IMG/VR virus record: IMGVR_UViG_3300045988_011209
Length of the DNA stretch: 40,769 bases
Source of the DNA: a virus
Direction: 5' to 3' (one strand)
Below the pieces are notes generated by a model. The model saw only the letters and a program-made list of their open reading frames with translations, was not told the DNA's origin and ran no database searches. A program made the translations under genes and the position numbers. Of this stretch, positions 2,375 to 38,680 are shown one piece after another. Position 1 is the stretch's first letter; every line of letters starts with the position of its first letter.

Positions 2375-2713
2375 ATGTGGACATGGCAATTCGAACTGAA
2401 TGATATATTAACCACTCTTACAATTGTAGGTGTAGTTGCAGGTGCAGGATATAGATTGTTGATTATTCCTTTGCTACAACAGTTGGACTCACAACGCGTG
2501 CAAGATAATCTTATTTTTCAAGAAAAATGGGGTGTATTAACTGACACGCTAAAAGATTTGAAAGATGAAATTAAATTATCACGTGCAGAGCGTATTAAAG
2601 CTGAAAGCAAGCAAGTATTACTATCTGCAAAGGTTGAAGCATTAGAAGTGCGTGTTGATGATATTAAGGAGGCGTTACATGAACATTCCACCAAAGCTCA
2701 TCAATACAATTAA
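2375..2713 (+). CDS. membrane protein with one N-terminal TM segment and a coiled coil; possible holin/antiholin-type lysis accessory
   Basis: Hydrophobic segment LTIVGVVAGAGYRLLIIPLL followed by a charged coiled-coil region. Sits immediately upstream of the holin and endolysin. Confidence 0.4.
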   Translation: MWTWQFELNDILTTLTIVGVVAGAGYRLLIIPLLQQLDSQRVQDNLIFQEKWGVLTDTLKDLKDEIKLSRAERIKAESKQVLLSAKVEALEVRVDDIKEALHEHSTKAHQYN

Positions 2714-3011
2714 ACAATCTTATAAATCTGTGAGGGTGGCTAACATCCACCCTACAGGTATATTCGCTACTCGGGCGCTAGTATTTATTATGCTAGTGCC
2801 TATTTTATTGGTAATAACTCAGTATGTTATGTCATTTGTTAGCGGGTACGTATCTGACGAGGCGAACAAGCTGATTAATGTAGGGCTTAATATCATAGAT
2901 CATATATTCATCCCTAGCGTATTAATGGCTGTTGTAGGATTCCTGGGACTTTGGCTAGATAAGAACAATAATGGCATTCCCGATAAATTAGAAGAGGAGG
3001 ATAAACGATGA
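2679..3011 (+). CDS. holin candidate (two TM segments, charged C-terminus)
   Basis: Start chosen at the ATG at 2679, preceded by RBS AAGGAGG; the track ORF begins at 2652. TM segments IFATRALVFIMLVPILLVI and IFIPSVLMAVVGFLGLWL are followed by a hydrophilic tail DKNNNGIPDKLEEEDKR. The stop overlaps the endolysin start (ATGA). Confidence 0.55.
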   Translation: MNIPPKLINTIKQSYKSVRVANIHPTGIFATRALVFIMLVPILLVITQYVMSFVSGYVSDEANKLINVGLNIIDHIFIPSVLMAVVGFLGLWLDKNNNGIPDKLEEEDKR

Positions 3012-3526
3012 AAGTATTTATTAATCCCGGACATGATATTAATTTAGATAGCGGGGCAGTTAACCCTGTATATGGTACACGTGAATGTGACGTGGCACGT
3101 GATGCGGGCAAAATGTTAGCTCGCTATTTGGAAACAGCAGGATGTGAAGTCCGCACTCTACAAGATGACGATTTAGGTCTAGTATGTTCTGAATCTGATT
3201 CTTGGGGCGCAGATATCTTCGTATCGCTTCATTGTAATGCATTTAACACGGAAGCTCGAGGAACTGAAACACTGTATAAGTCCTTTAATGGGCAACGCTT
3301 AGCGAACGATATTCAAAGTCAAATCATCCGCAGCATTAATACAGTTGACCGGGGCGTTAAGAAACGCGACGACCTTTGGGTACTAAATGGCACGGACGCA
3401 ACTGCAGTATTAGTTGAAATGGCATTCATTGATAACGAAGAAGATCATGCTATGCTGACTAATGATTTAGATACTATCGTTCGTGCCATTGCTAGGGGGA
3501 TTACTGACTACGCAGGAGGGATATGA
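3008..3526 (+). CDS. N-acetylmuramoyl-L-alanine amidase (Amidase_3 / CwlA-type) endolysin
   Basis: Matches the conserved Amidase_3 layout: N-terminal INPGHD/GAV, an SLHCNAF zinc-ligand region, and VLVEMAFIDNEED near the C-terminus. Confidence 0.9.
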   Translation: MKVFINPGHDINLDSGAVNPVYGTRECDVARDAGKMLARYLETAGCEVRTLQDDDLGLVCSESDSWGADIFVSLHCNAFNTEARGTETLYKSFNGQRLANDIQSQIIRSINTVDRGVKKRDDLWVLNGTDATAVLVEMAFIDNEEDHAMLTNDLDTIVRAIARGITDYAGGI

Positions 3527-4011
3527 TGTATGACAAACTCAAAGTTTTACTTAATAGCCTTAGTTACCGCCATGCTGTTATCGGTGGTATTGTGCTCCTC
3601 TCCGTCTTTTGCTGCTGGTACATCTTCCACGAGCCAAGTGGAGCCAACAATCACGATTCCCTTAACACAGTGGAACGAATTGAAAAGCAACAACGAGAAA
3701 GCCTTGAACTTAATCGAAGCATCCAACGTTCCATTGACCGAAGCTCAGACCTTAGTCATGAAGCAAAAGAACGAATTGACCGAAGCACACAATACAATAT
3801 CGACATTGGAAACAGAATTGATGAAAGCCAAAATGCTATCCATGAAGCAAGAAGTTACCTTGTCAGAAATGCAGAGCTCATTAACAGAATTGAAGGGTCA
3901 AATAGAGAACGACAAGCGAACAATCAAACGACTACGGATGCAGCGCAACCTATCTCAGATGGTGGGAGCGGGAGCAATAATTGGAGTAGTGATTCATCGG
4001 TAAAGAGGTGA
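3523..4011 (+). CDS. alternative-frame ORF fully overlapping 3530..4003; i-spanin-like layout (N-terminal TM plus periplasmic repeat-rich domain). It may be a genuine embedded gene or only a shadow ORF
   Basis: The ATG overlaps the endolysin stop (ATGA), and RBS GGAGGG sits 6 nt upstream. N-terminal TM AVIGGIVLLSVFCCWYIF. Its codon usage is atypical for this genome (many CGA and CTT codons). Confidence 0.3.
   Translation: MMYDKLKVLLNSLSYRHAVIGGIVLLSVFCCWYIFHEPSGANNHDSLNTVERIEKQQRESLELNRSIQRSIDRSSDLSHEAKERIDRSTQYNIDIGNRIDESQNAIHEARSYLVRNAELINRIEGSNRERQANNQTTTDAAQPISDGGSGSNNWSSDSSVKR
3530..4003 (+). CDS. spanin-like envelope protein (N-terminal signal peptide, central coiled coil, C-terminal TM); codon usage fits the genome
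   Basis: Signal-like N-terminus MTNSKFYLIALVTAMLLSVVLCSSPSFA, heptad-rich middle, C-terminal MVGAGAIIGVVIH. Uses TTA/TTG for Leu like the other genes in the genome. Starts 4 nt after the endolysin stop. Confidence 0.5.
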   Translation: MTNSKFYLIALVTAMLLSVVLCSSPSFAAGTSSTSQVEPTITIPLTQWNELKSNNEKALNLIEASNVPLTEAQTLVMKQKNELTEAHNTISTLETELMKAKMLSMKQEVTLSEMQSSLTELKGQIENDKRTIKRLRMQRNLSQMVGAGAIIGVVIHR

Positions 4012-5404: not shown

Positions 5405-5518
5405 AAAAATAACCTCCTAGGCTTAAATTTGAGTATAAGAAATAAGCCTTAGAGGTTTTATGTGATATAATAGTATTGGAGTAAAAATGAAATACCTCTA
5501 AGGTATGTAGTTTTTAGT

Positions 5519-5550
5519 GGCCCTCACTGCGGTGAGGGCTTATTTTTTTA
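5519..5550 (+). terminator. GC-rich hairpin followed by a T-run (terminator-like) between int and the downstream minus-strand gene
   Basis: GGCCCTCACTGCGGTGAGGGC followed by TTATTTTTTTA. The T-run is on the + strand, so as a terminator it would serve a + strand transcript. Confidence 0.4.
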
Positions 5551-5551
5551 T

Positions 5552-5899
5552 CTAAAATACAGAATCTAGTACGTTATCATACCAGTGCTTTTTCTTTTTA
5601 GGCTGTTGCACTTCTTCAGATGGTGCCTGGTGTATCTCATGATCGGCTTGCCATTTTGCCAGTGCGTTTTTAGTACCTTCGTCGACTTTGTGTAAGTCGT
5701 CCATTTCTTTTTGTGTCATACTAATAGTGCGTTCAAGATATTCCTGTTCGTCTAGTAATTCTGTGCTCCCGTCATCGTAATGTACTAATACTTTAGGGCC
5801 GTCTAAGGCCTTAAATTCATCGTGAGATACCTCAGTTCTAGCGAATCCTGTAACTGTAACTAAGGCGAGCATAGTAGTAATTAATAAAGTCTTTTTCAT
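5552..5899 (-). CDS. secreted hypothetical protein (signal peptide; 115 aa) within the lysogeny module
   Basis: N-terminus MKKTLLITTMLALVTVTGFA is a classic Sec signal. The mature part is acidic. Confidence 0.55.
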   Translation of the reverse strand: MKKTLLITTMLALVTVTGFARTEVSHDEFKALDGPKVLVHYDDGSTELLDEQEYLERTISMTQKEMDDLHKVDEGTKNALAKWQADHEIHQAPSEEVQQPKKKKHWYDNVLDSVF

Positions 5900-5925
5900 G
5901 TTAACATCTCCCTATATATAATCCC

Positions 5926-6201
5926 TTATAATACTGATACATAATGATGGTAGAAATCTATATTCTCCAGTTCGGTATCATCAATACATGTTCGACGGAC
6001 CATTTGCTCTACTAGATTAACGTGATGGTCTAAATAGAAGTCGTCATTAATAATATGCATTAATTCGTGCTTAATTTCTTCCCTCATACGGTCATGAGGG
6101 AGGTTTTTATTTATATAGATATTATGAGTATCTATATCTTCACATTCCTCTGATACAGCGTTGGCATGTGGTAAGTCGCAATAAATCAAATTTACAACCA
6201 A
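5926..6201 (-). CDS. ImmA/IrrE-like zinc metallopeptidase (short, 91 aa)
   Basis: HExxH motif HELMHII, and the gene sits directly downstream of an XRE-family repressor, which is the typical ImmR/ImmA arrangement. Confidence 0.55.
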   Translation of the reverse strand: MVVNLIYCDLPHANAVSEECEDIDTHNIYINKNLPHDRMREEIKHELMHIINDDFYLDHHVNLVEQMVRRTCIDDTELENIDFYHHYVSVL

Positions 6202-6222
6202 TATATCACTCTCCCTTGTGTA

Positions 6223-6600
6223 TTATTTGTTTTTTAATTTTAAAAGCTCTATATATTCGACTGCTTTTTCTAAATCCTCCTTACTTATATCTTTAGCGGC
6301 AGAGAAGAGCATACGAGCTCCTGGACGTGTGCGTAGGTATTCAGCAAATTCGGCTGCTTCACGGTCAGTGTAATAGCCGTCTGTATATTTCTCTACTAGT
6401 TCAGATTTAGGAACGCCAAAATAGTTTGCCAATAACTCAATTTTATCGATTCTAGGATACGTATTTCCCTTTACCCAATCGGTAAACGTAGTATACTTTA
6501 GCCCTAAATCAGCGCATATTTTATTGCGATCAATTCCGCGACTATCCATTAGTCGTTGAATATTCTCGGCCATAATAGCCTTGTTGCCTAAATCACTCAT
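6223..6600 (-). CDS. XRE-family HTH transcriptional repressor (CI-like)
   Basis: N-terminal HTH NKICADLGLKYTTFTDWVKGNTYP with a C-terminal extension. Transcribed divergently from the Cro-like gene across an operator-rich intergenic region. Confidence 0.8.
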   Translation of the reverse strand: MSDLGNKAIMAENIQRLMDSRGIDRNKICADLGLKYTTFTDWVKGNTYPRIDKIELLANYFGVPKSELVEKYTDGYYTDREAAEFAEYLRTRPGARMLFSAAKDISKEDLEKAVEYIELLKLKNK

Positions 6601-6642
6601 AATAACCTCTCAAACACGGAATATATTAATTAATATACCTAT

Positions 6643-6671
6643 ATATTACGACATTTTCGTAATAAAATCAA
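6643..6671 (-). promoter_or_regulatory. putative repressor-gene promoter (minus strand: -35 TTGATT, 17-bp spacer, -10 TAATAT) with operator palindrome TTACGA-CATTT-TCGTAA (6646..6662) in the spacer
   Basis: Read directly from the sequence. The inverted repeat has perfect 6-bp arms. Confidence 0.45.
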
Positions 6672-6710
6672 TATTTTACGGAAATTTTACGATAGTTTAA
6701 GTTTAGTTTA

Positions 6711-6739
6711 TGGACATTACGGATAAACCGTAGTAGAAT
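6711..6739 (+). promoter_or_regulatory. putative early rightward promoter (-35 TGGACA, 17-bp spacer, -10 TAGAAT) with operator palindrome TACGG-ATAAA-CCGTA (6718..6732) filling the spacer
   Basis: Read directly from the sequence. The downstream RBS AAAGGAGGT precedes the Cro-like gene. Confidence 0.45.
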
Positions 6740-6783
6740 GATGACTGTAAACAAGATGTGAGTATCGAGAAAGGAGGTAGCTT

Positions 6784-6972
6784 ATGAAGTATACATTAAA
6801 GATGTTAAGGGCTTCAAAAAACTGGTCTCAACTTACGGCATCTAAAGCAATTGGAGTGTCTGTTGATACTTGGGGAAATTGGGAGCGCAAACGCTCTTAC
6901 CCTGATGTTCCTCACATAAAAAAGATACAAGAAGTATTTGGTGTAACGTATGACGACATTATTTTTTTATAG
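6784..6972 (+). CDS. Cro-like small HTH regulator (XRE family, 62 aa)
   Basis: HTH WSQLTASKAIGVSVDTWGNWERKRSYP. Divergent from the repressor gene. Confidence 0.7.
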   Translation: MKYTLKMLRASKNWSQLTASKAIGVSVDTWGNWERKRSYPDVPHIKKIQEVFGVTYDDIIFL

Positions 6973-6976
6973 TTGA

Positions 6977-6992
6977 TTACGGTTAAACCGTT
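6977..6992. promoter_or_regulatory. third operator-like palindrome TTACGG-TTAAA-CCGTTA between the two rightward HTH genes
   Basis: Belongs to the same TTACGR-N5-YCGTAA family as 6646..6662 and 6717..6733. Confidence 0.4.
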
Positions 6993-7006
6993 ACGGAGGA
7001 AGGGTT

Positions 7007-7255
7007 ATGAAAGAATTCGTAATCAGAATGTTCGGCGAATCCATTACGGAACGCATGAACGAGTTAGGCATGACTAAGACGGCGCTGATCAAACAAGCTG
7101 AAATCTCGATGGATACATTAAACCGAGCTATCAAGGGCAAGTCAGTGCAAATGTCGACAGTCGTTGGTATCTGCTATGCGTTGTGTGTCGACGATACCGA
7201 AAGTCACGACTTTTGGGAAACCGATTACTACAACCCTAAGTTAGATAGGAGGTAG
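7007..7255 (+). CDS. second HTH DNA-binding regulator (82 aa)
   Basis: HTH-like MTKTALIKQAEISMDTLNRAIKGKS. Confidence 0.55.
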   Translation: MKEFVIRMFGESITERMNELGMTKTALIKQAEISMDTLNRAIKGKSVQMSTVVGICYALCVDDTESHDFWETDYYNPKLDRR

Positions 7256-7257
7256 CT

Positions 7258-7374
7258 ATGAATAAAAAACAATTATTAGAACTAGCTAGTTGTTGCTTAT
7301 GGATTTTAGCGCTCGGCTTGTCCGCAGGTATAAGTTTATTCGTGATGTTATCCCTGGTGCTTCTAGCATTCTAG
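7258..7374 (+). CDS. small hydrophobic membrane peptide (38 aa), not in the ORF track
   Basis: Strong RBS AGGAGGT 5 nt before the ATG. Translation is MNKKQLLELASCCLWILALGLSAGISLFVMLSLVLLAF. The start overlaps the upstream stop (TAGCTATG). Confidence 0.4.
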   Translation: MNKKQLLELASCCLWILALGLSAGISLFVMLSLVLLAF

Positions 7375-7377
7375 GAG

Positions 7378-7578
7378 GTGCATATGAATAAGATGTGCAT
7401 CACAGTAGCGGAAGCTGCAGAACTTGCTAGCGTACCGCAAGCCGTTATTCGAGAATGGGCGCAAGATTTTGACTTCCCGTCCATGAAAATCGGTAAGCGT
7501 GGAGGTAAACGCCTTATCCACGTTGATTCATTTAACGCTTGGCTTGCTAAACGATGCCAGGCGCGAATAGGAGAGTAG
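7378..7578 (+). CDS. excisionase-like / MerR-HTH_17-type small DNA-binding protein
   Basis: ITVAEAAELASVPQAVIREWAQ... fits the Xis/HTH_17 family. 66 aa, basic. Confidence 0.5.
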   Translation: MHMNKMCITVAEAAELASVPQAVIREWAQDFDFPSMKIGKRGGKRLIHVDSFNAWLAKRCQARIGE

Positions 7579-7580
7579 AC

Positions 7581-7760
7581 ATGATGAAAGTAGTTTATGT
7601 GCTTCGCATTATTGCAGCCATATTAGTAGTAGGAACTGTCGGTTCTATCGAAATAGACCGCATTGATTTATGGACTGGTATGTGCCAGGGGTTACTAGGT
7701 ATCACTCTTTGGTTACTCACTGGATACTGGATTGAGGAGTTAAAAGAGTATGAACGATAA
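7581..7760 (+). CDS. small two-TM membrane protein (59 aa)
   Basis: Start chosen at the ATG at 7581 with RBS AGGAGAG; the track ORF starts at 7554. Hydrophobic segments IIAAILVVGTVGS and LLGITLWLLTGYW. Confidence 0.35.
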   Translation: MMKVVYVLRIIAAILVVGTVGSIEIDRIDLWTGMCQGLLGITLWLLTGYWIEELKEYER

Positions 7761-7923
7761 ACGATGCTCATTCTGTAATAAAAGAATTAAAAGTCCTTAC
7801 ACAAATTGGTCGTACCTAACAGGTAAGCCTCGAATTGTGTGCGATAACTGTAAAGACATACACCCGTGTGTAAATAGAATAACACGTTTATCCAAACGTG
7901 CCTAGTGAAAGGAGGTGAGGACA

Positions 7924-8034
7924 TTGCGAGACTGTACAACGTGCCCTAATAGAGATTACTGCATTCCTGATGAGTGCGAGCACTTGGGCACAAAAAAAGC
8001 ACCCCAAAGCACGGCAATGCTAAAGGGCGCATAG
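7924..8034 (+). CDS. possible small Cys-rich ORF (TTG start, 36 aa)
   Basis: Strong RBS AAAGGAGGTGA 6 nt upstream of the TTG. Translation is (M)RDCTTCPNRDYCIPDECEHLGTKKAPQSTAMLKGA. Confidence 0.25.
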   Translation: MRDCTTCPNRDYCIPDECEHLGTKKAPQSTAMLKGA

Positions 8035-8086
8035 AAAAATATCCATTTAAAGTATATCACATCATTAAGCCGAAAGGGAATAGAAC

Positions 8087-8510
8087 AATGATCGAGTTAA
8101 AAATCACAGTTGATAAAGCAGTTGAATTAGAACAAGAAGTGAAAGACCTATATCAATCTATCGTAGGCGCTCCAGTTAAAGAAGAAACATCTACTAAGAA
8201 GGAAGCTCCTAAACAAGCTGAACCAGTTAAAGAAGAAGCACCTGCTCCTAAGGATGAACCTAAATCTGAACCAGAAGAAGAACCAGCAAAAGCTGAAGAA
8301 CCAGCAAAAGCTGAAGAACCTAAAGTAGAGGTTCCTAGCCTTGAAGCAACTCGTGAAGCAGTGAAAGACGTAATGGCAAAAGCCACTGATAAAACGAAAG
8401 CTAAAGGCGAATTCAAAGCCTTCTTAGATAGCATCGGTGCCGAAAAGGTAACATCTGCTACCGATGAACAACGTATTCAAATTATGGAATGGGTGAACAG
8501 CCGTGGCTAA
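8087..8510 (+). CDS. acidic Pro/Glu/Lys-rich low-complexity protein (141 aa)
   Basis: Start chosen at the ATG at 8087 with RBS AAAGGGAA; the track ORF starts at a GTG at 7974 in the same frame. Repeats PAKAEEPAKAEEPK. Confidence 0.5.
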
Positions 8511-9645
8511 GAAACACGCTTTACTAGGTGCATCAAGTAGCGCCAGGTGGCTAGTATGTACTCCTTCAGCAAGACTAGAAGCGATGTTCCCTGATGAACA
8601 ATCGCCGTATGCAGCGGAAGGCACTGTAGCTCACGACCTGGCAGAAGCAATTCTACGGCATAAGCTTGAGGGCAAAAAAGCCCCTAAGCTAGACGACTAC
8701 TCCGCTGAAATGATAGAAGCGGTTAATCGATATGTCGACATTTGCGAAGAAAAGGTAAACGAAGCTCGTGCTCGTTCCTCTGATGCGGAAGCCATGATTG
8801 AAGCACGGCTCGACTTCTCTAGGTGGGTACCTGATGGCTTTGGTACTGGTGACATGGTAATCGTAGCCGATGGCATCCTAGAAGTAATCGACCTAAAGTA
8901 TGGTAAGGGTGTTCCTGTTAGTGCCGTTGAAAACACACAAATGCGACTCTACGCATTAGGTGCTTACGATGTGAACGAGTACTTATACGACATTAAAACT
9001 GTTCGTATGACGATCGTTCAGCCAAGGCTTGATAGCGTATCTACCGACGAAATGCCTATAGCAGACCTGCTTGATTGGGGTGAAGAAATCAAACCAATCG
9101 CGCAACGTGCCTGGGAAGGTGGGGGCGAATGTACGCCTTGCGATTACTGTAACTTCTGTAAAGCACGGCACACCTGCCGAGCATTAGCAGATACTTGCCT
9201 TGATACATTCTATAAGAATGGTGGCAAGCTTAATCAATTACTTACTGACCGTGAAGTATCTGACATTCTAGCGATGAAAGATTTAATCACGAAATGGATT
9301 AAAGGTGTTTACGACTTCGCTTATGAAAAAGCATTATCGGGTGAAAAGCAATGGCCAGGATACAAATTAGTAGAAGGTACATCAAGACGTACCATAACGG
9401 ATCCGGATGCAGCAGCTAAAACATTACTCGATAACGGCTATAAGGAAGAAGACATCTTTAAGCCACGTGAACTCGAAGGTATCACAAACCTACAAAAAGT
9501 ACTCGGTAAAAAGGGCGTTGCCGAATACCTAGAAGCATATATCGAAAAACCGGAGGGCAAGCCTACGCTTGTACCGGAAAGCGATAAACGCCCAGCAATT
9601 AATACAGTTGAAACAATGATGAATGAATTTGAAGATGAGGTATAA
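8503..9645 (+). CDS. PD-(D/E)XK-type nuclease (Cas4/RecB-like fold) with a C-terminal Cys cluster; resembles the DUF2800 family of phage replication modules
   Basis: D...E.K-like stretch GTGDMVIVADGILEVIDLKYGKG, C-terminal CTPCDYCNFCKARHTC, and a position just upstream of the DUF2815-like and PolA genes. Confidence 0.6.
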   Translation: MAKKHALLGASSSARWLVCTPSARLEAMFPDEQSPYAAEGTVAHDLAEAILRHKLEGKKAPKLDDYSAEMIEAVNRYVDICEEKVNEARARSSDAEAMIEARLDFSRWVPDGFGTGDMVIVADGILEVIDLKYGKGVPVSAVENTQMRLYALGAYDVNEYLYDIKTVRMTIVQPRLDSVSTDEMPIADLLDWGEEIKPIAQRAWEGGGECTPCDYCNFCKARHTCRALADTCLDTFYKNGGKLNQLLTDREVSDILAMKDLITKWIKGVYDFAYEKALSGEKQWPGYKLVEGTSRRTITDPDAAAKTLLDNGYKEEDIFKPRELEGITNLQKVLGKKGVAEYLEAYIEKPEGKPTLVPESDKRPAINTVETMMNEFEDEV

Positions 9646-9648
9646 GAG

Positions 9649-11187
9649 ATGAACAAAACTTTAACAACAGCACTAGCAATTTCCGCGTTAGCAGTAAACG
9701 TAGTTGGCGCAACTAGTAATAACACAGTAGGCGGTACAGATAATACTATCTCCGCAAATTCTACAAGCTCCGCAGTATGGGGTTTCCAAAATAACATCGA
9801 CGCTAACAATGCGCTAGCGTTTGGTACTAACAATACTGTAACAGGTGAAAATGGTTTCGCCGGCGGTAATAATGCTACTGCAGCAGGTCGTAACTCCTTC
9901 GCTTTTGGGTCTCACGCCGAAAGCTTGGTGGAGTACACCGTAGCCATCGGTAATCAGGCTCGTGTTTCTAGCTACGATAGTGTAGCTATCGGAAACGGTG
10001 CCTTCGTATCCGGCGAGTCTTCTGTAGTATTAGGCAGAACTAATAATGTTACCGGCGCTGATACTGTGGTTATCGGGGCTAACAACGGCACAGTGGCTGG
10101 CGGCCAAAGTGCCATTGTAGGATACAACAATAAAATCGGTGCTGACAAAGAGCAACTAGTTTTCGGTTCTAACTCCGAATCTAATGGCCAAGGTGCTCTT
10201 ACATTTGGCACTCATGCCAAATCCTTAGCCACTGACGCCGTTGCATTCGGCAACAATACGATTGCTGACCAAGCGAATTCGGTGGCAATCGGAACAAACT
10301 CTGTTACAGATAGCGCCGTTGGCGTTGACGGCATTACTATAAACGGTACTCGCCACGTATTTGCTGGCGAGCAGCCAGCAAGTGTAGTCAGCTTTGGTTC
10401 TAAAGCCCGTGCTGGTGCAGGTGGTGTAACTCAATATAACCGCCAACTCACGAATGTTAGCGCTGGTCAAATCTCCGCTGATTCATTAGACGCTGTGAAC
10501 GGCTCCCAGTTGTTCGCTGCGATTGATGAAATCGAAACAAACGCTAAACAAATTGCTAAAAACAAGCAAAACATTAAAGACGTAGCAATCGGTTTGAACA
10601 TGTTAGGCGACGTGGTGAGTGATCATGAACAAGCTATCGCAGGTAATACTACTGCAATCGCCAACAATACTAACCGCATCAATGGTAATGCATCTGCTAT
10701 CAATTCCCTTGGCCAAAAGGTAACTGCTAATACAGCGGATATTAGAAGCCTTGAACATGTGGCAGACAATCACGAAGGTCGTATCACGACTTTAGAAAAT
10801 CGTTCTTTGGGCTTGTCTAATGACATTAACAACAAAGTCAACAATCTTGGCCAACGTGTTAATAAGTTAGGCGCAAGCTCCGCAGCACTTGCTGGATTGC
10901 ATCCATTAGACTTTAACAGAAATGACAAAGTCAGCTACGCTGTAAGTTACGGCCATTACCGTAACAGTAATGCAGTAGCGCTCGGCGTATTCGCTAGACC
11001 TAATGAACGTATCATGCTTAGCTTTGGTGCTACGCTAGGCGGTGAGAACCAATACACCGTAAACGTAGCATTCAAAACTGGTAAAGGCAGTGACTACATC
11101 GCAGAAGCCAAAGATGCACAAAGCCGTATTTCTAAACTTGAAACACTCGTAAACAAATTAATGACTGAAGTAGAAGCTAACAAATAA
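9649..11187 (+). CDS. YadA-like trimeric autotransporter adhesin: signal peptide, Hep_Hag head repeats, neck, coiled-coil stalk, YadA-type beta-barrel anchor, then a 30-aa coiled-coil tail
   Basis: Signal MNKTLTTALAISALAVNVVGA. Head repeats of the SVAIG.NA.A / NSFAFGS type. Neck motif DAVNGSQLFA. Heptad stalk. Anchor LAGLHPLDFNRNDKVSYAVSYGHYRNSNAVALGVFARPNERIMLSFGATLGGENQYTVNVAFKTGKG, followed by SDYIAEAKDAQSRISKLETLVNKLMTEVEANK. Confidence 0.8.
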   Translation: MNKTLTTALAISALAVNVVGATSNNTVGGTDNTISANSTSSAVWGFQNNIDANNALAFGTNNTVTGENGFAGGNNATAAGRNSFAFGSHAESLVEYTVAIGNQARVSSYDSVAIGNGAFVSGESSVVLGRTNNVTGADTVVIGANNGTVAGGQSAIVGYNNKIGADKEQLVFGSNSESNGQGALTFGTHAKSLATDAVAFGNNTIADQANSVAIGTNSVTDSAVGVDGITINGTRHVFAGEQPASVVSFGSKARAGAGGVTQYNRQLTNVSAGQISADSLDAVNGSQLFAAIDEIETNAKQIAKNKQNIKDVAIGLNMLGDVVSDHEQAIAGNTTAIANNTNRINGNASAINSLGQKVTANTADIRSLEHVADNHEGRITTLENRSLGLSNDINNKVNNLGQRVNKLGASSAALAGLHPLDFNRNDKVSYAVSYGHYRNSNAVALGVFARPNERIMLSFGATLGGENQYTVNVAFKTGKGSDYIAEAKDAQSRISKLETLVNKLMTEVEANK

Positions 11188-11213
11188 TTCATTTAAAGAA
11201 GGAGACCGTAACA

Positions 11214-11774
11214 ATGGCTAAATTAACAACTGGTATCGTAAGACTTTCCTATGCAAACATCGCTCAACCTCGTAAAAACGACGACGGAAAAGCAAAATAC
11301 AGCTCTCAAATCATTATTGATAAAACAGATAAGAAGACAATCAAAGCATTTGAACGTGCGATTGAAGAACTTAAGGCTGATCCAAAAGCAGTAGCTAAAG
11401 TAGAAGGTAAAGCTGCATACCTTAAATTGAATTTACGTGATGGTGATACAGATGAAGCAGTAGCTGACCAACCTGAAACATACGCTGGCAAGTTCTTCAT
11501 CAACGCTAACAGCGATAAACAACCTATCGTATTTACTCGTGACAAAATCAAGATGGACCAATTCGACATTGAAGAAGAAATTTACTCCGGTGTCTACGCG
11601 CAGGTAGCGCTTTCTGTGTTCGCTTACAACTTCAACGGTAAAAAAGGTGTAGGCTTTGGCCTAAATGGTGTTCGTAAAGTTAAAGATGGTGACCGCCTCG
11701 GTGGTGTTCATGTATCTGCTAGCGACTTCGGGGATGACGATTTAGGTGACCTAGACGATGACGATTTAATCTAA
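11214..11774 (+). CDS. DUF2815-like protein, probable phage single-stranded DNA-binding protein (acidic C-terminal tail)
   Basis: N-terminus MAKLTTGIVRLSYANI, which I recall as typical of DUF2815. C-terminus DFGDDDLGDLDDDDLI resembles the acidic tip of SSB proteins. Sits between the nuclease and the DNA polymerase. Confidence 0.6.
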   Translation: MAKLTTGIVRLSYANIAQPRKNDDGKAKYSSQIIIDKTDKKTIKAFERAIEELKADPKAVAKVEGKAAYLKLNLRDGDTDEAVADQPETYAGKFFINANSDKQPIVFTRDKIKMDQFDIEEEIYSGVYAQVALSVFAYNFNGKKGVGFGLNGVRKVKDGDRLGGVHVSASDFGDDDLGDLDDDDLI

Positions 11775-11784
11775 GGAGGCATAT

Positions 11785-13719
11785 ATGGAGCTCAGTATTG
11801 ATGTGGAAACGTATTCTGACTGCCCTATTAAATATGGGGCTCAGCGATACGTTGATGATACAACATTTGAAATACTGCTCTTTGCCTACAGCTTCGATGA
11901 CGAACCGGTCGAAGTAATTGATATGACAAAGGATCCACTGCCCGAAAGGGTGGTGGACGCTTTGTATAACAAGGAAATTACAAAGACCGCATTCAACGCA
12001 GCATTCGAAATGCTTTGTCTAAAAAAGTACTTCCCTGATGCGGACTATACGAACTGGGAATGTACCTCTGTACTAGCGTTATACTGCAGCTTACCGGCAA
12101 GCCTCGATAATGTATCTAAGGCTTTGAAATTAGGAGAAGCCAAGGACACAAGAGGTAAACGCCTAATTCAGTTCTTCTCTGTACCACGTAAGCCTACTAA
12201 GACAAATCCTAAGACACGTAATATGCCCGAGGATGCGCCGGAGAAATGGGCGGAATATATTGAATATAACCGCCAAGACGTAGTGGTAGAGAAGGCAATT
12301 CGTAAACGCTTACTTTCGCTAAAGCCACCTGCTATCGAGCACGAGTACTGGTTACTCGACCAAGATATCAACTGGCTAGGCGTAAAAGTAGATATGGAAC
12401 TCGTCGATGCAGCGCTTGCATGCAATGACGAAATCGTGGAAGAAGCTACCGAGTCATCTAAGATATTAACCGGATTAGAGAATCCAAATAGTACGATGCA
12501 ACTTAAAGAGTGGCTAACTGCAAGACTAGGATATGATCTAGAAACAATGAGAAAAGACGATGTATCAAGCCTCTTAGAACAGGATATCCCCTCTGATGTT
12601 CGCAAGGTACTGCAAAATAGACAGGTACTCGGTAACTCCTCCATCAAAAAATACTTGGCCATGAAAAACGCTGTATGTTCAGATGGTCGCATCCATGGCA
12701 TGCTTCAGTTTTATGGAGCAATGCGAAGTGGACGATGGGCAGGTCGTGTAGTACAACTGCAGAACCTCCCTCGTAACTACTTAGAAGATTTAGACACCGC
12801 TCGGGAAGTTCTTAAGAGTAGAGATGTAGAAATGCTAGACCTACTATATGGAAACCCTGGCGATGTGATTAAGCAACTTATCCGTACTGCTCTTGTAGCA
12901 GAAGAGGGGCACCGATTTATTGTAGCCGATTTCAGTGCTATTGAAGCACGTGTTATAGCTTGGCTAGCTCACGAGAAATGGCGCCAGGATGTATTTGCGC
13001 AAGGTGGTGACATCTACTGTGCATCTGCATCTAGTATGTTCCACGTTCCAGTTGAGAAGCACGGCGTTAACGGTCACCTTCGCCAAAAAGGTAAGGTAGC
13101 AGAATTAGCGCTCGGCTATGGTGGCGGTGTAGGAGCTATGAAGGCGATGGACTCAAAAGGGGAAATTCCTGAAAAGGAGCTACCGGGTATCATCGAAGCT
13201 TGGCGACAAGCTAGCCCACGAATTACGAGATTTTGGAAAGATGCAGACAGCGCAGCAAAGCAAGTAGTGAAAACAGGAGAACCCGTACGAATTAGACAAG
13301 GTAATATTAAATTCTTTAAATCGAAAGGCTTCCTGTTCATCGAATTACCGTCCGGTCGAAGACTTGCCTATGCAAGACCTAGAATTGGGACTAACCGGTT
13401 CGGTAGTGAATCGATTGAGTATGACGGTATGGATCAGGTTAAGAATACATGGGGCAGAGTTGAAACCTATGGCGGAAAGCTCGTCGAAAACATTGTACAG
13501 GCGGTGGCAAGAGATTGCTTAGCAGCATCAATGCTACGGCTTTCTAAAGCAGGATACAAGATTGTTGCCCACATCCACGACGAAGTGGTTATCGAAGCGC
13601 CAATAGGTGAAGGCAGTTTAGAAGAAGTTATAGATATTATGTGTGAACCTGAACCCTGGAATGAAGGGCTCATATTAAACGCAGCAGGGTTTGAGAACCC
13701 TTACTACATGAAGGATTAG
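11785..13719 (+). CDS. family A (Pol I-like) DNA polymerase with a 3'-5' exonuclease domain
   Basis: Exo I motif IDVETYS. Polymerase motif B RQKGKVAELALGYGGG. Motif C HDEVVIE. Confidence 0.85.
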   Translation: MELSIDVETYSDCPIKYGAQRYVDDTTFEILLFAYSFDDEPVEVIDMTKDPLPERVVDALYNKEITKTAFNAAFEMLCLKKYFPDADYTNWECTSVLALYCSLPASLDNVSKALKLGEAKDTRGKRLIQFFSVPRKPTKTNPKTRNMPEDAPEKWAEYIEYNRQDVVVEKAIRKRLLSLKPPAIEHEYWLLDQDINWLGVKVDMELVDAALACNDEIVEEATESSKILTGLENPNSTMQLKEWLTARLGYDLETMRKDDVSSLLEQDIPSDVRKVLQNRQVLGNSSIKKYLAMKNAVCSDGRIHGMLQFYGAMRSGRWAGRVVQLQNLPRNYLEDLDTAREVLKSRDVEMLDLLYGNPGDVIKQLIRTALVAEEGHRFIVADFSAIEARVIAWLAHEKWRQDVFAQGGDIYCASASSMFHVPVEKHGVNGHLRQKGKVAELALGYGGGVGAMKAMDSKGEIPEKELPGIIEAWRQASPRITRFWKDADSAAKQVVKTGEPVRIRQGNIKFFKSKGFLFIELPSGRRLAYARPRIGTNRFGSESIEYDGMDQVKNTWGRVETYGGKLVENIVQAVARDCLAASMLRLSKAGYKIVAHIHDEVVIEAPIGEGSLEEVIDIMCEPEPWNEGLILNAAGFENPYYMKD

Positions 13720-13732
13720 GAGGACAATTCTT

Positions 13733-14062
13733 ATGAAACTCTCAAAACAACAAATTCAACAACAACGCGAAGCAATCGACGGCTTATATGAACTCGTAAA
13801 AGATGCACCAGCTAGTGAGCGTAAAGATACAGCTATGGCGTACTGCGAAGGATGTATTGCTGCTTGCGACCTCGCGCTTAAGATATTAAATGGCAAGAAA
13901 GCAGAAGCTCCTAAGGTGGAAGAACCTGAAACTGCTCCAGTGGTAGAAGAACAATCCGCTGAGAAACCAAAACGTAAACGTAAGAAGAAAGAAGAACCTG
14001 TAGTAGAAGCTCCAGTAGTTGAGGAAACTCCTGAAGAAGATGATTTAGACGATTTGTTATAA
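13733..14062 (+). CDS. hypothetical acidic protein with a Pro/Glu/Lys-rich tail (109 aa)
   Basis: ORF with RBS AGGAGGA. No motif recognised. Confidence 0.45.
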   Translation: MKLSKQQIQQQREAIDGLYELVKDAPASERKDTAMAYCEGCIAACDLALKILNGKKAEAPKVEEPETAPVVEEQSAEKPKRKRKKKEEPVVEAPVVEETPEEDDLDDLL

Positions 14063-14080
14063 GAGAAAGGATAGCGCCTT

Positions 14081-15754
14081 ATGAAGGTCTTATTCAATCT
14101 ACAAGTACAACAGCTGTACGACCTAGTGCGGCGCAATCAAGTGTCACCTTTTAACCCCGCAAGTTATTACCATGTACCTTGCGAACACTCCTTCGCTAAT
14201 CTTTGGCCAATGGAATCTAATGGGTTCGGGATAGTGCCTTGCCGGGAATCAGATGAGTTCTATTGTCCAAAATGCGGTGAGCGGATCAACGCTAAAGGGT
14301 TTACTGCAGAAGTTGGGTATAGCGCCACAGTTCCTTTATCCCTAGACTTATCAATTATAGATAGGGGCGATAAACTGGACGTGCAATTTGAGTACGACAC
14401 GGTATACGCCGACGGAGATAATGGGATGATTTACAAAGGCTATAAATCTCACGTCATCGATGTGGTGCGGTTTGACTTTAAACAAAGAAAAACCTTTATC
14501 ATACTTAAGAAACGCTCACGCAGCGACGTCGTCGAAGAAGCGACAGTCTCCCCGTCGGGCTTTAGTAATTCCCTTTCATCGTTAGATTGGTTCGTAGCCA
14601 CTCCTGACTGCAGACTACATAACTACAGGGATGAGTTAAAATGTTTCGCTAAGGTGCTAAAAGAAGTATTCTTCACGAAATTATCAAAGGTCGTAGGCTA
14701 TAAAGTCAAATCCATTAGACAAGGCGTACAGGTGTCTAACCATTACGGAGCCTTCGATAACCTACTCCATAACTTAGTATGGAAATTACAAGCTCCGGAT
14801 GCGCCGGCTATCAATGACAGCTTAAAGCGTGACTATGACGACTACTATAATCGGAAATTCCCCAACGAGACACTTGGTATGGGTAACGTATTAGAGTTAA
14901 CGATAAAAGGTGATTCCTTTGTAAAGGGCTTAATCAAGGCTCATAACTTACCTGATACCCGATGGGTTCGTCGGTTATTACACGATAGACCGTTCTTCTA
15001 TGCGAAGATCATCAAAGTTATGGCTACGTTATTTAAGAACAAGGACTATCAAAAGGCGATGGTCGATGTTATCAAAGATAACGCTGATAATACAAGTTAT
15101 ATTCAGTCCTGGCCATTATGGCGTGATGACCGTGATTTATCTGTCATTCGTAAATTTGTTAATATCCTTAGCCATCAATACGGTGAGCGCCAGGCGTTCT
15201 TATTCATTAGAAATGCGCCTTCCTATCACGATGTCAGAGATACAGCTAGTATGTATTTTGAGTTATCGAGAAGTCGCCGTAAAGAGGTTTGGGGTAGTCG
15301 CATCCAGGTGCGTAACCTACATGACACAATCTCGAGAATGCAAAAGTTCGACAAAGTGGAAGACGAAATCGTGCAGCAGCGTAAAGCACATCGCGCTTTA
15401 GCTGACATGGTTAATGGTTACCGCTTCATGGCTATCGGTTCTACACACGGCATCATTGATATGGGGATACAGCTTAATAACTGTGTAAGCTCCTATATCA
15501 AGAAGGTGAAAGCAGAAACGTGTGCTATCGTAGGCGTCTATAAATGTAACGAGCCAGTAGCGTGTATCGAAGTTAATCCGAAAAGTGATGCGGACGACTT
15601 TGTAGAAATACACCAGGCTAAACTTAAAAACAATCGTGGCGTGTACGAAGACCACGATATCAACGGAGCTGTAACGCAGTGGGTAACCTCTCACGGCTTA
15701 TGCGTTCCGGCGTATGTACGAGATATCCAGTTTGCGAAGGGAGGAGCGATGTAA
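14081..15754 (+). CDS. large hypothetical protein with an N-terminal Cys4 zinc-ribbon (CEH...CPKC), located inside the replication module
   Basis: A 557-aa ORF with a good RBS, sitting between PolA and the primase. Function is unknown. Confidence 0.5.
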   Translation: MKVLFNLQVQQLYDLVRRNQVSPFNPASYYHVPCEHSFANLWPMESNGFGIVPCRESDEFYCPKCGERINAKGFTAEVGYSATVPLSLDLSIIDRGDKLDVQFEYDTVYADGDNGMIYKGYKSHVIDVVRFDFKQRKTFIILKKRSRSDVVEEATVSPSGFSNSLSSLDWFVATPDCRLHNYRDELKCFAKVLKEVFFTKLSKVVGYKVKSIRQGVQVSNHYGAFDNLLHNLVWKLQAPDAPAINDSLKRDYDDYYNRKFPNETLGMGNVLELTIKGDSFVKGLIKAHNLPDTRWVRRLLHDRPFFYAKIIKVMATLFKNKDYQKAMVDVIKDNADNTSYIQSWPLWRDDRDLSVIRKFVNILSHQYGERQAFLFIRNAPSYHDVRDTASMYFELSRSRRKEVWGSRIQVRNLHDTISRMQKFDKVEDEIVQQRKAHRALADMVNGYRFMAIGSTHGIIDMGIQLNNCVSSYIKKVKAETCAIVGVYKCNEPVACIEVNPKSDADDFVEIHQAKLKNNRGVYEDHDINGAVTQWVTSHGLCVPAYVRDIQFAKGGAM

Positions 15755-33895: not shown

Positions 33896-34579
33896 ATGTA
33901 TTACTTCTATATGGGGACGATGCAGATACCGATTCCCCCTAAAGAATTAACCACTACTATCAATGGCAAGAACGAAACAATGGAACTATTGGGGAAAGGC
34001 GAAGTTAACGTTATTAAACCTGCAGGGCTTACTGACATTGCTTTTAAACTCTTGTTGCCTAACTCTGATTATCCATTTAATGAGTCCTTGGTCTTTAAGT
34101 CTAAGAAGGCTAAGTACTACATCGATGAACTCGAAAAACTCAAAACTACAAAGACGATCTTCCAATTTATCGTAGTTCGAATGAAACCAGGCGGACAGAT
34201 GCTGGCCATGACTAACATGAAGTGTACGCTTGAAAACTACGTCATAGAAGAAGATGCAGATAATGGTTTTGATTCGTATGCTAGTGTTACCTTGAAACAG
34301 TGGAAACCTTGGGGTGCTAAACGAATTGAAGTGAAGACCGACAAAGACGGTACTGCGAAAGGTAGCGTTAAGTCGGACAGACCTACGGATGGCAAGGTGG
34401 CCGTATCAACTGCCAAAGTCTCCAAAGGGCAGACTTTACAGCAAATTGTTAAGAAGCAACTAGGTAATACGGATAACCTATTCCAAATTGCAGCACTTAA
34501 CAAAATCGCTGTTCCTGCTATCTTGGGAGTTGGCCAAATCGTTCAGCTTAAACGAGAGGGTAATAACGAATGGCTATAG
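33896..34579 (+). CDS. XkdP-like tail protein with a C-terminal LysM domain
   Basis: C-terminus GQTLQQIVKKQLGNTDNLFQIAALNKIAVPAILGVGQIVQL is a LysM-like motif. Confidence 0.65.
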   Translation: MYYFYMGTMQIPIPPKELTTTINGKNETMELLGKGEVNVIKPAGLTDIAFKLLLPNSDYPFNESLVFKSKKAKYYIDELEKLKTTKTIFQFIVVRMKPGGQMLAMTNMKCTLENYVIEEDADNGFDSYASVTLKQWKPWGAKRIEVKTDKDGTAKGSVKSDRPTDGKVAVSTAKVSKGQTLQQIVKKQLGNTDNLFQIAALNKIAVPAILGVGQIVQLKREGNNEWL

Positions 34580-36126
34580 ATGAAAAGAAAACGGTCGAAA
34601 AATCTCAAATCAATGGCACTATCATTCCGTTACCCATGCCTACGCAACTCCACTATGAGCTGACCATCAGAAACAAAAGCACTGGTGATTTGTGGCTCAT
34701 AGAACCTGAAGACGGCGTACAAATTACGAGAGCAGTTGACTGTGTTCCAAGTAAAATGACATTTAAAGTACCTAAAGACCCTAACCTCAATTTTGAAGAA
34801 GGTGATACTGTTAAGTTCACTTTAAACGGAGGAGCGGTGTTCTTCGGGTATGTCTTTGAGAAACAGCGTGACGGCAAGAACTCTATATCAGTAACTTGCT
34901 ATGATCAGATACGATATCTCAAGAATAAAGACTGTTATGTTATCGGAGCGATGACTGCGACTGAGTTCATCAAAATGGTGGCCGATGACTTTGGGTTGAA
35001 ATGTGGTTATATGGACGATACCGTGTGGAAAACTCCGGAGAAACCGCAAACCATATTCAAAGATAAGTCATTGCAAGAAATGATATGCCAACTACTCGAT
35101 AAAACGGCTATATACACGCCTAATCATGCGTTCTACCATTTGTACGATGATGCGGGCGAGTTAAGGCTGGCATCGTTTGAGACTATGAAGACAGATATTT
35201 ACATCGATGATGAGTGCATGGAAGATGTGCAGTACACAACTTCCATAGACAAAGAAACATACAACTATGTAAAAATCGTCCGTACAGTCCCAAATGGTGC
35301 ATCAAGTAAATTGGAGAACACATTCATAGCTAAGGACGATAAGAACATCGAGAAATGGGGCAGATTACAGTATCTGCTCATTCCTAAAGAGAAGGACGTC
35401 AATGCAGTAGCACAAGCCAAGGCAATCATGGCTCACAAAAACAAGAAAAGCCGTGAGATTAAGTTGAAAAACGTCATTGGCGATGTGCGTGTGCGTGGTG
35501 GCTCGTTGGTGTATATCAATCGAAACTTTGGCGATATGATTGTTAATAATTACATGATGGTAACATCTGTTACTCATACGTTTAAAACAGGATTTCATGG
35601 AATGGATCTAGATTTACGATACGTTGATAATGATGCGGCTTATGAAGTTGCAAAAGACGAAGATGCGGAAGCAGTTAAGAAGATTGAAGCTGCTAAGAAG
35701 ACCAAAAGCTCCGCAGTCACTACTGGGGCGGGTGGTACAGCAGGTCAAGTCGATACCGCATTCAGCGCCAATGACGGCAGAGTATCTCAATATGGTAGCG
35801 TAGGGTGCGCTGACACAGTATGCGCTACTGGGTCTTGGTACAATTCTGATTTGAAAGCAGAATATGACAAAGGGACGGCATCTGTTCCTACACTTCGCCA
35901 AAACCTAGAAGCGAAAGGCTATGTTACCGAGCAGTTTAACGGCTATGCCAATAAAGGCGATTTATTGATTTACGGCGACGATGATCATGTCGTAATCGCT
36001 GATGGCGCAGGCGGGTGCTTTGGTAACTCCTCTAGCCGTGGATATGCTATGAAGTATGGCAACGCAAATTATGCGTGGCATAATGACGAAGCGCCAACTA
36101 AGATTATTCGAATGGGGGCTAAATAA
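34570..36126 (+). CDS. XkdQ-like baseplate/hub protein with a C-terminal NlpC/P60-like peptidase domain (putative tail-associated lysin)
   Basis: The C-terminal region contains YGSVGCADTVCATGSWY (candidate Cys) and KGDLLIYGDDDHVVIADGAGG, which matches the NlpC/P60 His motif pattern GDL...HV.I..G. Confidence 0.55.
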   Translation: MAIDEKKTVEKSQINGTIIPLPMPTQLHYELTIRNKSTGDLWLIEPEDGVQITRAVDCVPSKMTFKVPKDPNLNFEEGDTVKFTLNGGAVFFGYVFEKQRDGKNSISVTCYDQIRYLKNKDCYVIGAMTATEFIKMVADDFGLKCGYMDDTVWKTPEKPQTIFKDKSLQEMICQLLDKTAIYTPNHAFYHLYDDAGELRLASFETMKTDIYIDDECMEDVQYTTSIDKETYNYVKIVRTVPNGASSKLENTFIAKDDKNIEKWGRLQYLLIPKEKDVNAVAQAKAIMAHKNKKSREIKLKNVIGDVRVRGGSLVYINRNFGDMIVNNYMMVTSVTHTFKTGFHGMDLDLRYVDNDAAYEVAKDEDAEAVKKIEAAKKTKSSAVTTGAGGTAGQVDTAFSANDGRVSQYGSVGCADTVCATGSWYNSDLKAEYDKGTASVPTLRQNLEAKGYVTEQFNGYANKGDLLIYGDDDHVVIADGAGGCFGNSSSRGYAMKYGNANYAWHNDEAPTKIIRMGAK

Positions 36127-38671: not shown

Positions 38672-38680
38672 GGAGAACAC

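Follow-up and report, generated by a model that had tools for sequence, protein, structure and literature searches.

A temperate Veillonella phage with a compact trimeric autotransporter adhesin gene in its early operon

The adhesin gene, its product and the phage that carries it

The stretch of DNA examined here (the window; 40,769 nucleotides, IMG/VR record IMGVR_UViG_3300045988_011209) carries at 9649..11187, on the + strand, an open reading frame (ORF) of 512 aa plus stop. The predicted architecture of the product, as read from its sequence, three Pfam domains, an AlphaFold2 model, Foldseek and PDB matches, establishes it as a complete trimeric autotransporter adhesin (TAA). The gene lies between a gene for a DUF2800 / PD-(D/E)XK exonuclease (8503..9645, + strand; Pfam E 3.9e-133; PHROG 69 exonuclease) and one for Enc34_ssDNA-bd (DUF2815), a single-stranded DNA-binding/annealing protein (11214..11774, + strand; Pfam E 1.3e-45; PHROG 112), after which comes a gene for a family-A DNA polymerase (PolA). 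An initial annotation, made from the letters alone, had proposed both a complete adhesin and its placement between a DUF2800-like nuclease and a DUF2815/SSB-like protein, and both proposals hold.

Residues 1-21 (9649..9711, + strand) form a putative signal peptide, read from the sequence as MNK, a hydrophobic core and VGA followed by T. The N-terminus, MNKTLTTALAISALAVNVVGA followed by TS, has what appears to be the n/h/c layout of the Sec type, with K3 and hydrophobic residues 4-18; AlphaFold2 places a low-confidence helix at 3-12, and the peptide is kept in other phage TAAs and in P0176, a protein described below. The head, residues 22-262 (9712..10434, + strand), is predicted to be a YadA-type left-handed beta-roll: YadA_head (formerly Hep_Hag) is found in four stretches (E 7.7e-16), the model shows a beta-solenoid at residues ~25-250 with a confidence score (pLDDT) >90 and a strand recurrence of ~14 residues, and Foldseek aligns the head with BpaC, UspA1, BoaA and CbpF. 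It is followed by the neck DAVNGSQLFA and a coiled-coil stalk, residues 263-420 (10435..10908, + strand), where YadA_stalk covers residues 266-310 including SLDAVNGSQLFAA (E 4.7e-8) and the model has one continuous helix at 285-415 (131 residues). The YadA-type anchor, residues 421-475 (10909..11073, + strand), matches YadA_anchor PF03895 at 423-473 (E 3.1e-9) and is modelled as four beta-strands (428-437, 440-452, 455-463 and 469-475) ending at F475. All three Pfam domains score above the gathering score, which answers the profile check that the initial annotation had called for. The AlphaFold2 model is a monomer model, built on 13 relatives, and against the PDB it matches exclusively TAA heads (BpaC, UspA1, CbpF, BoaA, AtaA, EibD, YadA) and TAA anchors, the latter including Hia 2gr7 (rmsd 2.2, TM 0.84) and YadA 2lme (rmsd 2.1, TM 0.71). 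Among solved proteins, the one closest in sequence is CbpF of Fusobacterium nucleatum (9gh4, E 2.6e-21).

Beyond the anchor, residues 476-512 (11074..11184, + strand) form a tail of 37 aa, with a KTGKGSDYIAEAKDAQ linker and a 3-heptad coiled coil that is modelled as a helix at 490-511. Its hydrophobic a/d positions are I494, L497, V501, L504 and V508, the first four of which are at least 90% conserved among 13 diverse relatives, and the motif FKTGKGS[DE]Y..EAK...SRI.KLE.LV.KL..EV is conserved across phage-type TAAs. The initial annotation had noticed roughly 30 residues of coiled coil here, quoting 32 of the 37, and had named similar extensions from Negativicutes, in agreement with the literature: all Veillonella TAAs were reported to have a post-anchor periplasmic domain (Bechon et al. 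2020, PMC7549365), as have 99.8% of Negativicutes TAAs (Dorison et al. 2026, bioRxiv 10.64898/2026.01.22.700529). A periplasmic extension was defined there by >10 residues beyond the beta-barrel, and the window TAA has 37 past F475; by its AlphaFold2 helix and its heptads, the tail belongs to the short coiled-coil type of <100 residues, and Pfam found no SLH domain in the 512-aa protein. The segment past the anchor is the periplasmic domain already described for TAAs of Negativicutes. Phage-context TAAs in our survey are 435-617 aa long, with anchors 52-97% identical to that of the window and tails of 30-37 aa, mostly with the motif FKTGKGS[DE]Y..EAK...SRI.KLE.LV. The chromosomal Negativicutes TAAs sampled reach ~2,900 aa, with anchors at most 57% identical; their tails are either coiled coils of ~31-99 aa or belong to a long type of 139-192 aa, described in the literature as coiled coil plus SLH. 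The shortest tails in the survey are of the phage type.

In regard to the genome around the gene, bases 1-80 recur at 40690-40769 as a circular-assembly overlap, which leaves a complete phage genome of 40,689 bp. The - strand encodes an integrase and a CI-type repressor, and the + strand has a long early operon; there are also genes for terminase, portal, capsid, tail sheath and tube, tape measure, baseplate and endolysin, a lysis cassette at 2375-4011, and two fibre-gene sets, with fibre/baseplate genes at 34570-39586 and 1120-2370. The window as a whole is a complete circular genome of the temperate myovirus type.

At 96-100% identity, more than 120 protein clusters match the window TAA; they come mostly from ~40-kb contigs, and some from large NCBI-named Veillonella contigs. 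Two Veillonella contigs, of 274 and 611 kb, hold the element in integrated form, with genes for FTHFS, FTCD_C, a xanthine/uracil permease, MOSC and MoaA as its neighbours; Veillonella sp. GCA_032480235.1 is one of the strains with this prophage. A scan of one genome per species with an anchor+tail alignment as query gave 80 loci, in Veillonella, Megasphaera, Acidaminococcus, Dialister, other Negativicutes and one Synergistetes metagenome-assembled genome (MAG), with a few MAGs labelled as monoderm Firmicutes that were probably mis-binned; the dozen closest loci are all from Veillonella. Since the same element is integrated in Veillonella chromosomes and anchor+tail matches are nearly all from Negativicutes, the diderm Firmicute host predicted in the initial annotation is correct, namely Veillonella, and the comparison with host-lineage adhesins that it suggested shows homology of anchor and tail to Negativicutes TAAs. 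Two proteins labelled Klebsiella grimontii (P0122) and Pseudomonas sp. (P0126) were discarded as host clues, as they match only the repeated head/neck modules and not the anchor+tail.

A second, short tyrosine recombinase (228 aa) is encoded at 40073-40759 on the - strand, between the fibre sets at 38681-39586 and 1120-2370, and its position suggests a fibre-switching system. A switch by fibre inversion was considered and rejected, as there is no inverted repeat of at least 14 nt in the rotated region 38000-4200.

Distribution, exchange and selective constraint

The content of the slot between DUF2800 and DUF2815 was surveyed in 80 IMG/VR contigs whose DUF2815 protein is 98-100% identical to that of the window, 78 of them informative. 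A complete TAA alone fills the slot in 53 loci, a TAA together with an acidic ORF of 101-112 aa in two, and the acidic ORF alone in 20; the TAA is cut by the contig end in three loci, and the remaining two are uninformative. TAA-positive (58) and TAA-negative (20) loci have flanks that are 94-100% identical, and no gene separates DUF2800 from DUF2815 in Streptococcus phage Javan630. Furthermore, identical TAA junctions are found in >50 independent contigs and isolate or MAG chromosomes. These data show that the TAA is accessory cargo, inserted at the DUF2800-DUF2815 junction, and the proposed phage-borne insertion is borne out by the 20 near-identical sister phages without it.

The alternative occupant of the slot, the acidic ORF (MVTV.AIAKEL.ERGHY.DELYQITIAYATSL...; L033 5649-5987, L053 5682-5987, L076 5679-5987), has no PHROG match. 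In the window, the 26-nt spacer before DUF2815 (11188..11213, + strand), where neither a hairpin nor a T-run was found, holds CATTTAAAGAAGGAGACCGTAACA, a remnant of the 3' end of this small ORF; the remnant occupies 11190-11213, where TAA-less phages read CCATTTAAGAAATAAGGAGACCGTAACA. Among TAA-carrying phages the small ORF was lost via two different deletion junctions, and TAA presence follows phage phylogeny, as synonymous divergence (dS) between groups exceeds that within groups. The likely history, judging from these sequences, is that the TAA was inserted between DUF2800 and the small ORF, which would then have been lost at least two times.

The compositional deviation for which the initial annotation had suggested a test was not found. 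Its GC content (0.452) and GC content at third codon positions (0.384) are inside the range of the neighbouring genes, and the correlation of its relative synonymous codon usage with that of other phage genes is 0.82, second highest among 16 genes compared. All 57 complete TAA copies are intact, and stalk indels among alleles comprise 7 or 14 residues, preserving the heptad register. Pooled Nei-Gojobori estimates gave for the whole TAA a dS of 0.49 and a ratio of nonsynonymous to synonymous divergence (dN/dS) of 0.09. The anchor is the most conserved part (dS 0.38, dN/dS 0.024) and the head is the second most constrained (0.65 and 0.066), followed by the stalk (0.38 and 0.14) and the tail (0.34 and 0.21); DUF2815, PolA and DUF2800 in the same phages have dS of 0.35-0.38 and dN/dS of 0.012-0.045. 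The TAA has long co-diverged with the phage lineage under purifying selection.

One integrated copy, in a V. parvula MAG (GCA_046940615.1, L002 4561-21535), presents a different pattern: its alignment with the window opens 91 indels over 17 kb, and many of its phage genes are split, although the chromosomal flank appears intact. In this prophage there are zero indels across window positions 8715-12021 (3.3 kb), a segment that runs from the end of DUF2800 through the TAA and DUF2815 into the start of PolA. The copy may be a decaying prophage retaining the TAA, or the pattern may be an effect of assembly quality. Domestication of this TAA was considered, and not adopted, as the same prophage holds other indel-free stretches of ~2 kb and the mismatch density of the island is ordinary; the case is suggestive but not decisive.

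TAAs of this kind are not confined to one phage lineage. Window-type anchor+tail is encoded in 387 IMG/VR stretches, and 16 phage-context TAAs on at least five backbones always lie in an early + strand operon, 0.8-5 kb from the repressor/switch region, and of the 16 other-locus phage TAAs examined, 12 have a repressor homologue upstream. Their upstream gap is -4 to 90 nt and their downstream gap -4 to +92 nt, the next gene overlapping the TAA stop in 8/16. Examples include a TAA 53% identical to that of the window (P0127) in a phage that encodes a serine recombinase, Bro/ANT, Sipho_Gp157 and SSB, and another, 55% identical (P0129), whose phage encodes a tyrosine integrase, CI, PcfJ and an AAA_23 ATPase. 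A further example is V. atypica KON ATCC 17744, with a prophage of the L096 type, where the TAA is upstream of a divergent DUF2800-DUF2815-PolA module. An 82% identical TAA is found in L095 on a backbone whose other proteins are just 25-55% identical; conversely, L090 (6702-8348) has a backbone 96-98% identical and a 548-aa TAA 49% identical to that of the window, and P0176 (324 aa) joins the same putative signal peptide and anchor+tail to an unrelated passenger. Judged from these sequence comparisons, exchange goes both ways, with alleles and passengers swapped in a slot that stays constant. A 435-aa TAA of Megasphaera micronuciformis F0359 (L098), with 67% anchor identity and a 37-aa phage-type tail, indicates that the module may extend beyond Veillonella.

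Several of these lineages have a conserved double hairpin between a gene for a protein with two transmembrane segments (2-TM) and the TAA start (L083 7895-8003, L093 5325-5433, L095 5035-5145, L111 6395-6500). Its first stem-loop, SL1, shows compensatory changes, and the second, SL2, consists of GGTAGAGT..ACTCTACC and then TGTATTGT; the SL2 motif is confined to the pre-TAA position among 168 loci examined and does not occur in the window. Such a structure could be an early terminator/antiterminator or an RNA-processing site. Neither the window nor these hairpin leaders match an Rfam family, the sole matches being tRNA genes beside serine recombinases. A tRNA gene adjoins the serine recombinase of the second TAA-carrying phage type (L083 3562-3634, L111 2050-2122) and is probably its attachment site.

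Deposited phage genomes offered few points of comparison. For window positions 8000-14000, a blastn search in distant mode gave nothing beyond DUF2800/PolA matches of 64-73%, which belong to Streptococcus, Erysipelothrix and gut phages, and tblastn found no TAA homologue in 50,697 deposited phage records. V. parvula SKV38 is without a phage-type TAA, as judged from the published inventory of its nine trimeric autotransporters. Absence from deposited phage genomes and from SKV38 may explain why the element escaped notice. No report linking Veillonella TAAs to phages was found in the literature searched. The TAA family, the periplasmic tail and the idea of phage-borne adhesins are already known; a recurrent, exchangeable mini-TAA in the early operon of phages of diderm Firmicutes appears to be unreported.

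Expression context and possible roles

The TAA ATG starts 3 nt past the DUF2800 stop (9643-9645), and its ribosome-binding site, GAGGT (9637..9641, + strand), lies inside the last DUF2800 codons, a layout suggestive of translational coupling; DUF2815 begins 26 nt beyond the TAA stop. A consensus scan of 5500-14500 gave 18 promoter-like sites against 19.2 expected, none of them just upstream of the TAA, and no + strand terminator-like site between 6103 and 11934. The promoter and terminator of its own that the initial annotation had advised looking for were thus not found. Likewise, no sigma-70-like site of at least 9/12 lies within 160 nt upstream of the 13 phage TAAs examined. The CI-type HTH repressor gene (6223..6600, - strand; Pfam HTH_26, HTH_3) is divergent from the TAA-containing early operon, and between it and a cro-like ORF (6784-6972) sits a candidate early promoter, TGGACA-17-TAGAAT (6711..6739, + strand), a consensus match whose spacer holds the palindrome TACGGATAAACCGTA (6718-6732). 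The palindrome TACGG(A/T)TAAACCGT, present at 6718-6732 in this candidate promoter, occurs again at 6978-6991 before the next early gene, and both copies are probably repressor or Cro operators. Because of the tight gaps, the lack of an own promoter or terminator, and the operator-like promoter opposite the repressor, the simplest reading is that the TAA would be co-transcribed with the recombination/replication genes from a repressor-controlled early promoter. TAA expression in lysogens is possible; nothing found here indicates it.

The early operon of the window also holds, at 7554-7760, a gene for a 68-aa protein with two predicted transmembrane segments, which is present in early operons of several unrelated Veillonella phage backbones. 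In L083, L093, L095 and L111 this 2-TM gene is directly upstream of the TAA. A role as TAA helper was rejected, as the gene is present in 16/19 TAA-less sister phages; in the window it lies 1.9 kb upstream of the TAA.

The explanation that we favour, and consider moderately probable, is that the gene encodes a functional Negativicutes-type TAA, carried as an accessory cassette by a temperate Veillonella phage and expressed early as an adhesin or aggregation factor. According to this model, the TAA would be transcribed within the repressor-controlled early operon, so that the protein would appear soon after infection or prophage induction and would not form an independent unit expressed in lysogeny. 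The host Sec system would export it, and the host BAM would insert three 4-strand anchors as a 12-strand barrel. The passenger would then thread out to form a trimeric lollipop of ~20-25 nm, with the beta-roll head on the coiled-coil stalk; the 131-residue helix is estimated at ~19 nm, part of it inside the barrel. The 37-residue tail would form a short periplasmic trimeric coiled coil that may protect the protein against degradation, by analogy with V. parvula VtaA, VtaE and VtaF, which were degraded and lost their function without the coiled-coil periplasmic domain (bioRxiv 10.64898/2026.01.22.700529).

The role itself is the least certain step. The protein could act as a ligand-specific adhesin or aggregation factor, tying the infected or induced cell to its biofilm neighbours. 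Short TAAs of the YadA and Eib classes are typically adhesins or autoagglutinins, and adhesion or aggregation is favoured for this reason, as well as because the head is more constrained than the stalk (0.066 vs 0.14) and because whole passengers are exchanged as cassettes while the predicted signal peptide and the anchor stay constant. The main alternative role would be to shield the surface against phage adsorption, and whether the lysogen or the phage benefits depends on the timing of expression.

Several points weigh against this explanation. We infer the homotrimer, its outer-membrane location and its ligand from homology. The consensus scan could miss a promoter inside DUF2800, as Veillonella promoters are poorly characterised, and the structured leaders of 80-90 nt upstream of the TAA in several other lineages could indicate unrecognised regulation. 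The indel-free 3.3-kb island in the V. parvula MAG would fit a benefit to the lysogen. Finally, the single documented precedent of a phage-borne TAA, Eib, concerns prophages and, by analogy, favours a lysogenic role.

A first rival, and the view of the initial annotation, is classical lysogenic conversion, in which the TAA would be expressed from the resident prophage via an internal or read-through promoter and would provide a new adhesion, aggregation or immune-evasion phenotype, as with Eib. Prophage-borne TAAs are known, with eib of E. coli ECOR-9 linked to eaaA/eaaC (PMC3153244), the element examined here is widespread as an integrated prophage, and strong purifying selection and long residence count in its favour, as does the indel-free TAA region in a frameshift-rich prophage. 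However, the gene lacks its own promoter and terminator, being set off by gaps of 3 and 26 nt with promoter-like sites at chance level, the other phage TAAs examined likewise lack an upstream promoter match, the composition is that of the phage, and the gene is always in the early operon downstream of the repressor/cro switch and never at the prophage end. The lysogenic-conversion reading is therefore not supported by the gene anatomy, as far as it can be read from sequence, and we regard it as a possible but doubtful account. Of the traits of a moron, to which the initial annotation likened the gene, it shows the presence/absence pattern (58 vs 20 loci) and not the separate transcription signals or the deviating composition.

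Alternatively, a dense layer of short TAAs displayed early could shield the surface, blocking superinfecting phage or the loss of progeny on debris and vesicles, analogous to T5 Llp and Cor. The early-operon position in every lineage examined would suit this, as an outer-membrane protein would have to be made early for assembly before lysis, and so would the shortness of phage TAAs (435-617 aa, vs up to ~2,900 aa for many chromosomal ones) with their minimal tail. On the other hand, we know of no precedent for a TAA acting in phage exclusion, and the constrained head (dN/dS 0.066) together with the cassette exchange of passengers suggests specific ligand binding and not steric bulk. Such shielding is, in our judgement, unlikely.

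It is very improbable that the gene is an assembly chimera or a neutral hitch-hiker, meaning a piece of a host gene picked up by accident and with no function in either phage or host. The presence/absence polymorphism does indicate that it is dispensable for phage replication, but the junctions are the same in >50 independent contigs and chromosomes, indels keep the heptad register, and the same kind of gene occurs in at least five phage backbones and in the 387 IMG/VR stretches. As 57/57 complete copies are intact, the dS of the TAA (0.49) is near that of its flanks, and dN/dS is low (0.09), selection analysis effectively refutes this explanation and excludes an assembly artefact. A virion fibre or spike derived from a TAA-like coiled coil, the structural alternative named in the initial annotation, is hardly credible and effectively refuted: TAA stalks do resemble phage fibres, with weak PDB sequence matches to the coiled coil of the P22 tail needle gp26 and a PHROG match to families of unknown function, but the protein carries a putative Sec signal peptide as well as a 4-strand outer-membrane anchor, its gene belongs to the early operon and precedes the terminase gene by 11 kb, fibre/baseplate genes are encoded elsewhere in the phage, and 20 sister phages do without it. 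A spanin-like role of the periplasmic tail was also rejected, as the gene is far from the lysis cassette and the large constrained passenger would be left unexplained.

A broader form of the favoured explanation can be offered only tentatively. Veillonella temperate phages could share an exchangeable early-operon mini-adhesin module, consisting of a 435-617-aa TAA with a dedicated anchor and a 30-37-aa periplasmic coiled coil, which would be a device of phage fitness at the start of the lytic cycle and not a gift to the lysogen. Such a module would move between unrelated backbones and swap passengers; its product would make infected cells aggregate with fresh hosts or with partner streptococci, or else protect the cell surface and debris from phage adsorption. 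If so, it would represent a new class of phage strategy in diderm Firmicutes and a horizontally mobile determinant of biofilm architecture in the mouth and gut.

The biological setting makes these possibilities relevant. In biofilms of the mouth and gut, Veillonella is abundant as a bridging coloniser, and both its autoaggregation and its coaggregation with streptococci are determined by TAAs (PMC7549365, PMC11633186). The phage described here, like several unrelated ones of Veillonella, probably alters the adhesion partners of its host cells, and if phages deliver and exchange compact TAAs, adhesion phenotypes would be strain-variable, transferable and possibly dependent on prophage induction. 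The phage TAA is common in human metagenomes and experimentally tractable; with 512 aa, it lends itself as a minimal model in which to study the function of the Terrabacteria-specific periplasmic coiled coil. When a viral TAA has a post-anchor tail, this can serve as a marker to predict that the host is a diderm Firmicute.

Comparison with known systems

In a general sense, the window TAA can be compared with lambda Lom and Bor, T5 Llp, and Cor, which are also phage-encoded products of the host outer membrane that alter adhesion, serum resistance or adsorption. These have unrelated folds (8-strand barrels or lipoproteins), none of them being a TAA, and Lom and Bor are separately transcribed in lysogens.

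Yersinia YadA has the same domain order, with signal peptide (putative in the window TAA), beta-roll head, neck, coiled-coil stalk and 4-strand anchor, and belongs to a similar size class. YadA is not known to have a post-anchor domain, and its ligand is collagen. Both its head (PDB 1p9h) and its anchor (2lme) were matched by the window TAA, although sequence similarity is limited (E 1e-6 to 4e-6) and YadA is plasmid-borne in a proteobacterium.

F. nucleatum CbpF (PDB 9gh4, 9gh5, 9u93) is likewise a short TAA of 489 aa with a YadA-type head and ~50 residues past the aligned anchor, but it comes from another phylum. Because the best-scoring aligned stretch is the neck-to-anchor region, the CEACAM1/5 binding of CbpF is not transferable to the window TAA. 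To our knowledge, CbpF is not phage-borne.

The Eib proteins of the E. coli ECOR-9 prophages are, like the window TAA, short TAAs of ~400-500 aa on temperate phages (PMC3153244). They are, however, proteobacterial proteins, and the window TAA does not belong with them by sequence: EibD 2xqh is a weak Foldseek match (E 5e-3, rank 17), and the tblastn search of phage records gave no homologue. Eib proteins end at the anchor, without a known periplasmic tail, and are regarded as expressed by the lysogen.

The chromosomal TAAs VtaA, VtaE and VtaF of V. parvula differ from the window TAA in size (~3000 aa vs 512 aa) and in the length of the tail, which is 45-63 aa when calculated from the published deleted nucleotide ranges, vs 37 aa here; compared with the chromosomal Negativicutes TAAs sampled, the anchor of the window TAA is at most 57% identical. 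The window TAA differs also in being phage-borne, and neither of the two studies of the Veillonella proteins (PMC7549365, bioRxiv 10.64898/2026.01.22.700529) mentions phage. On the other hand, these proteins come from the same host genus and share with the window TAA a YadA anchor that is not C-terminal and is followed by a periplasmic coiled coil of <100 residues.

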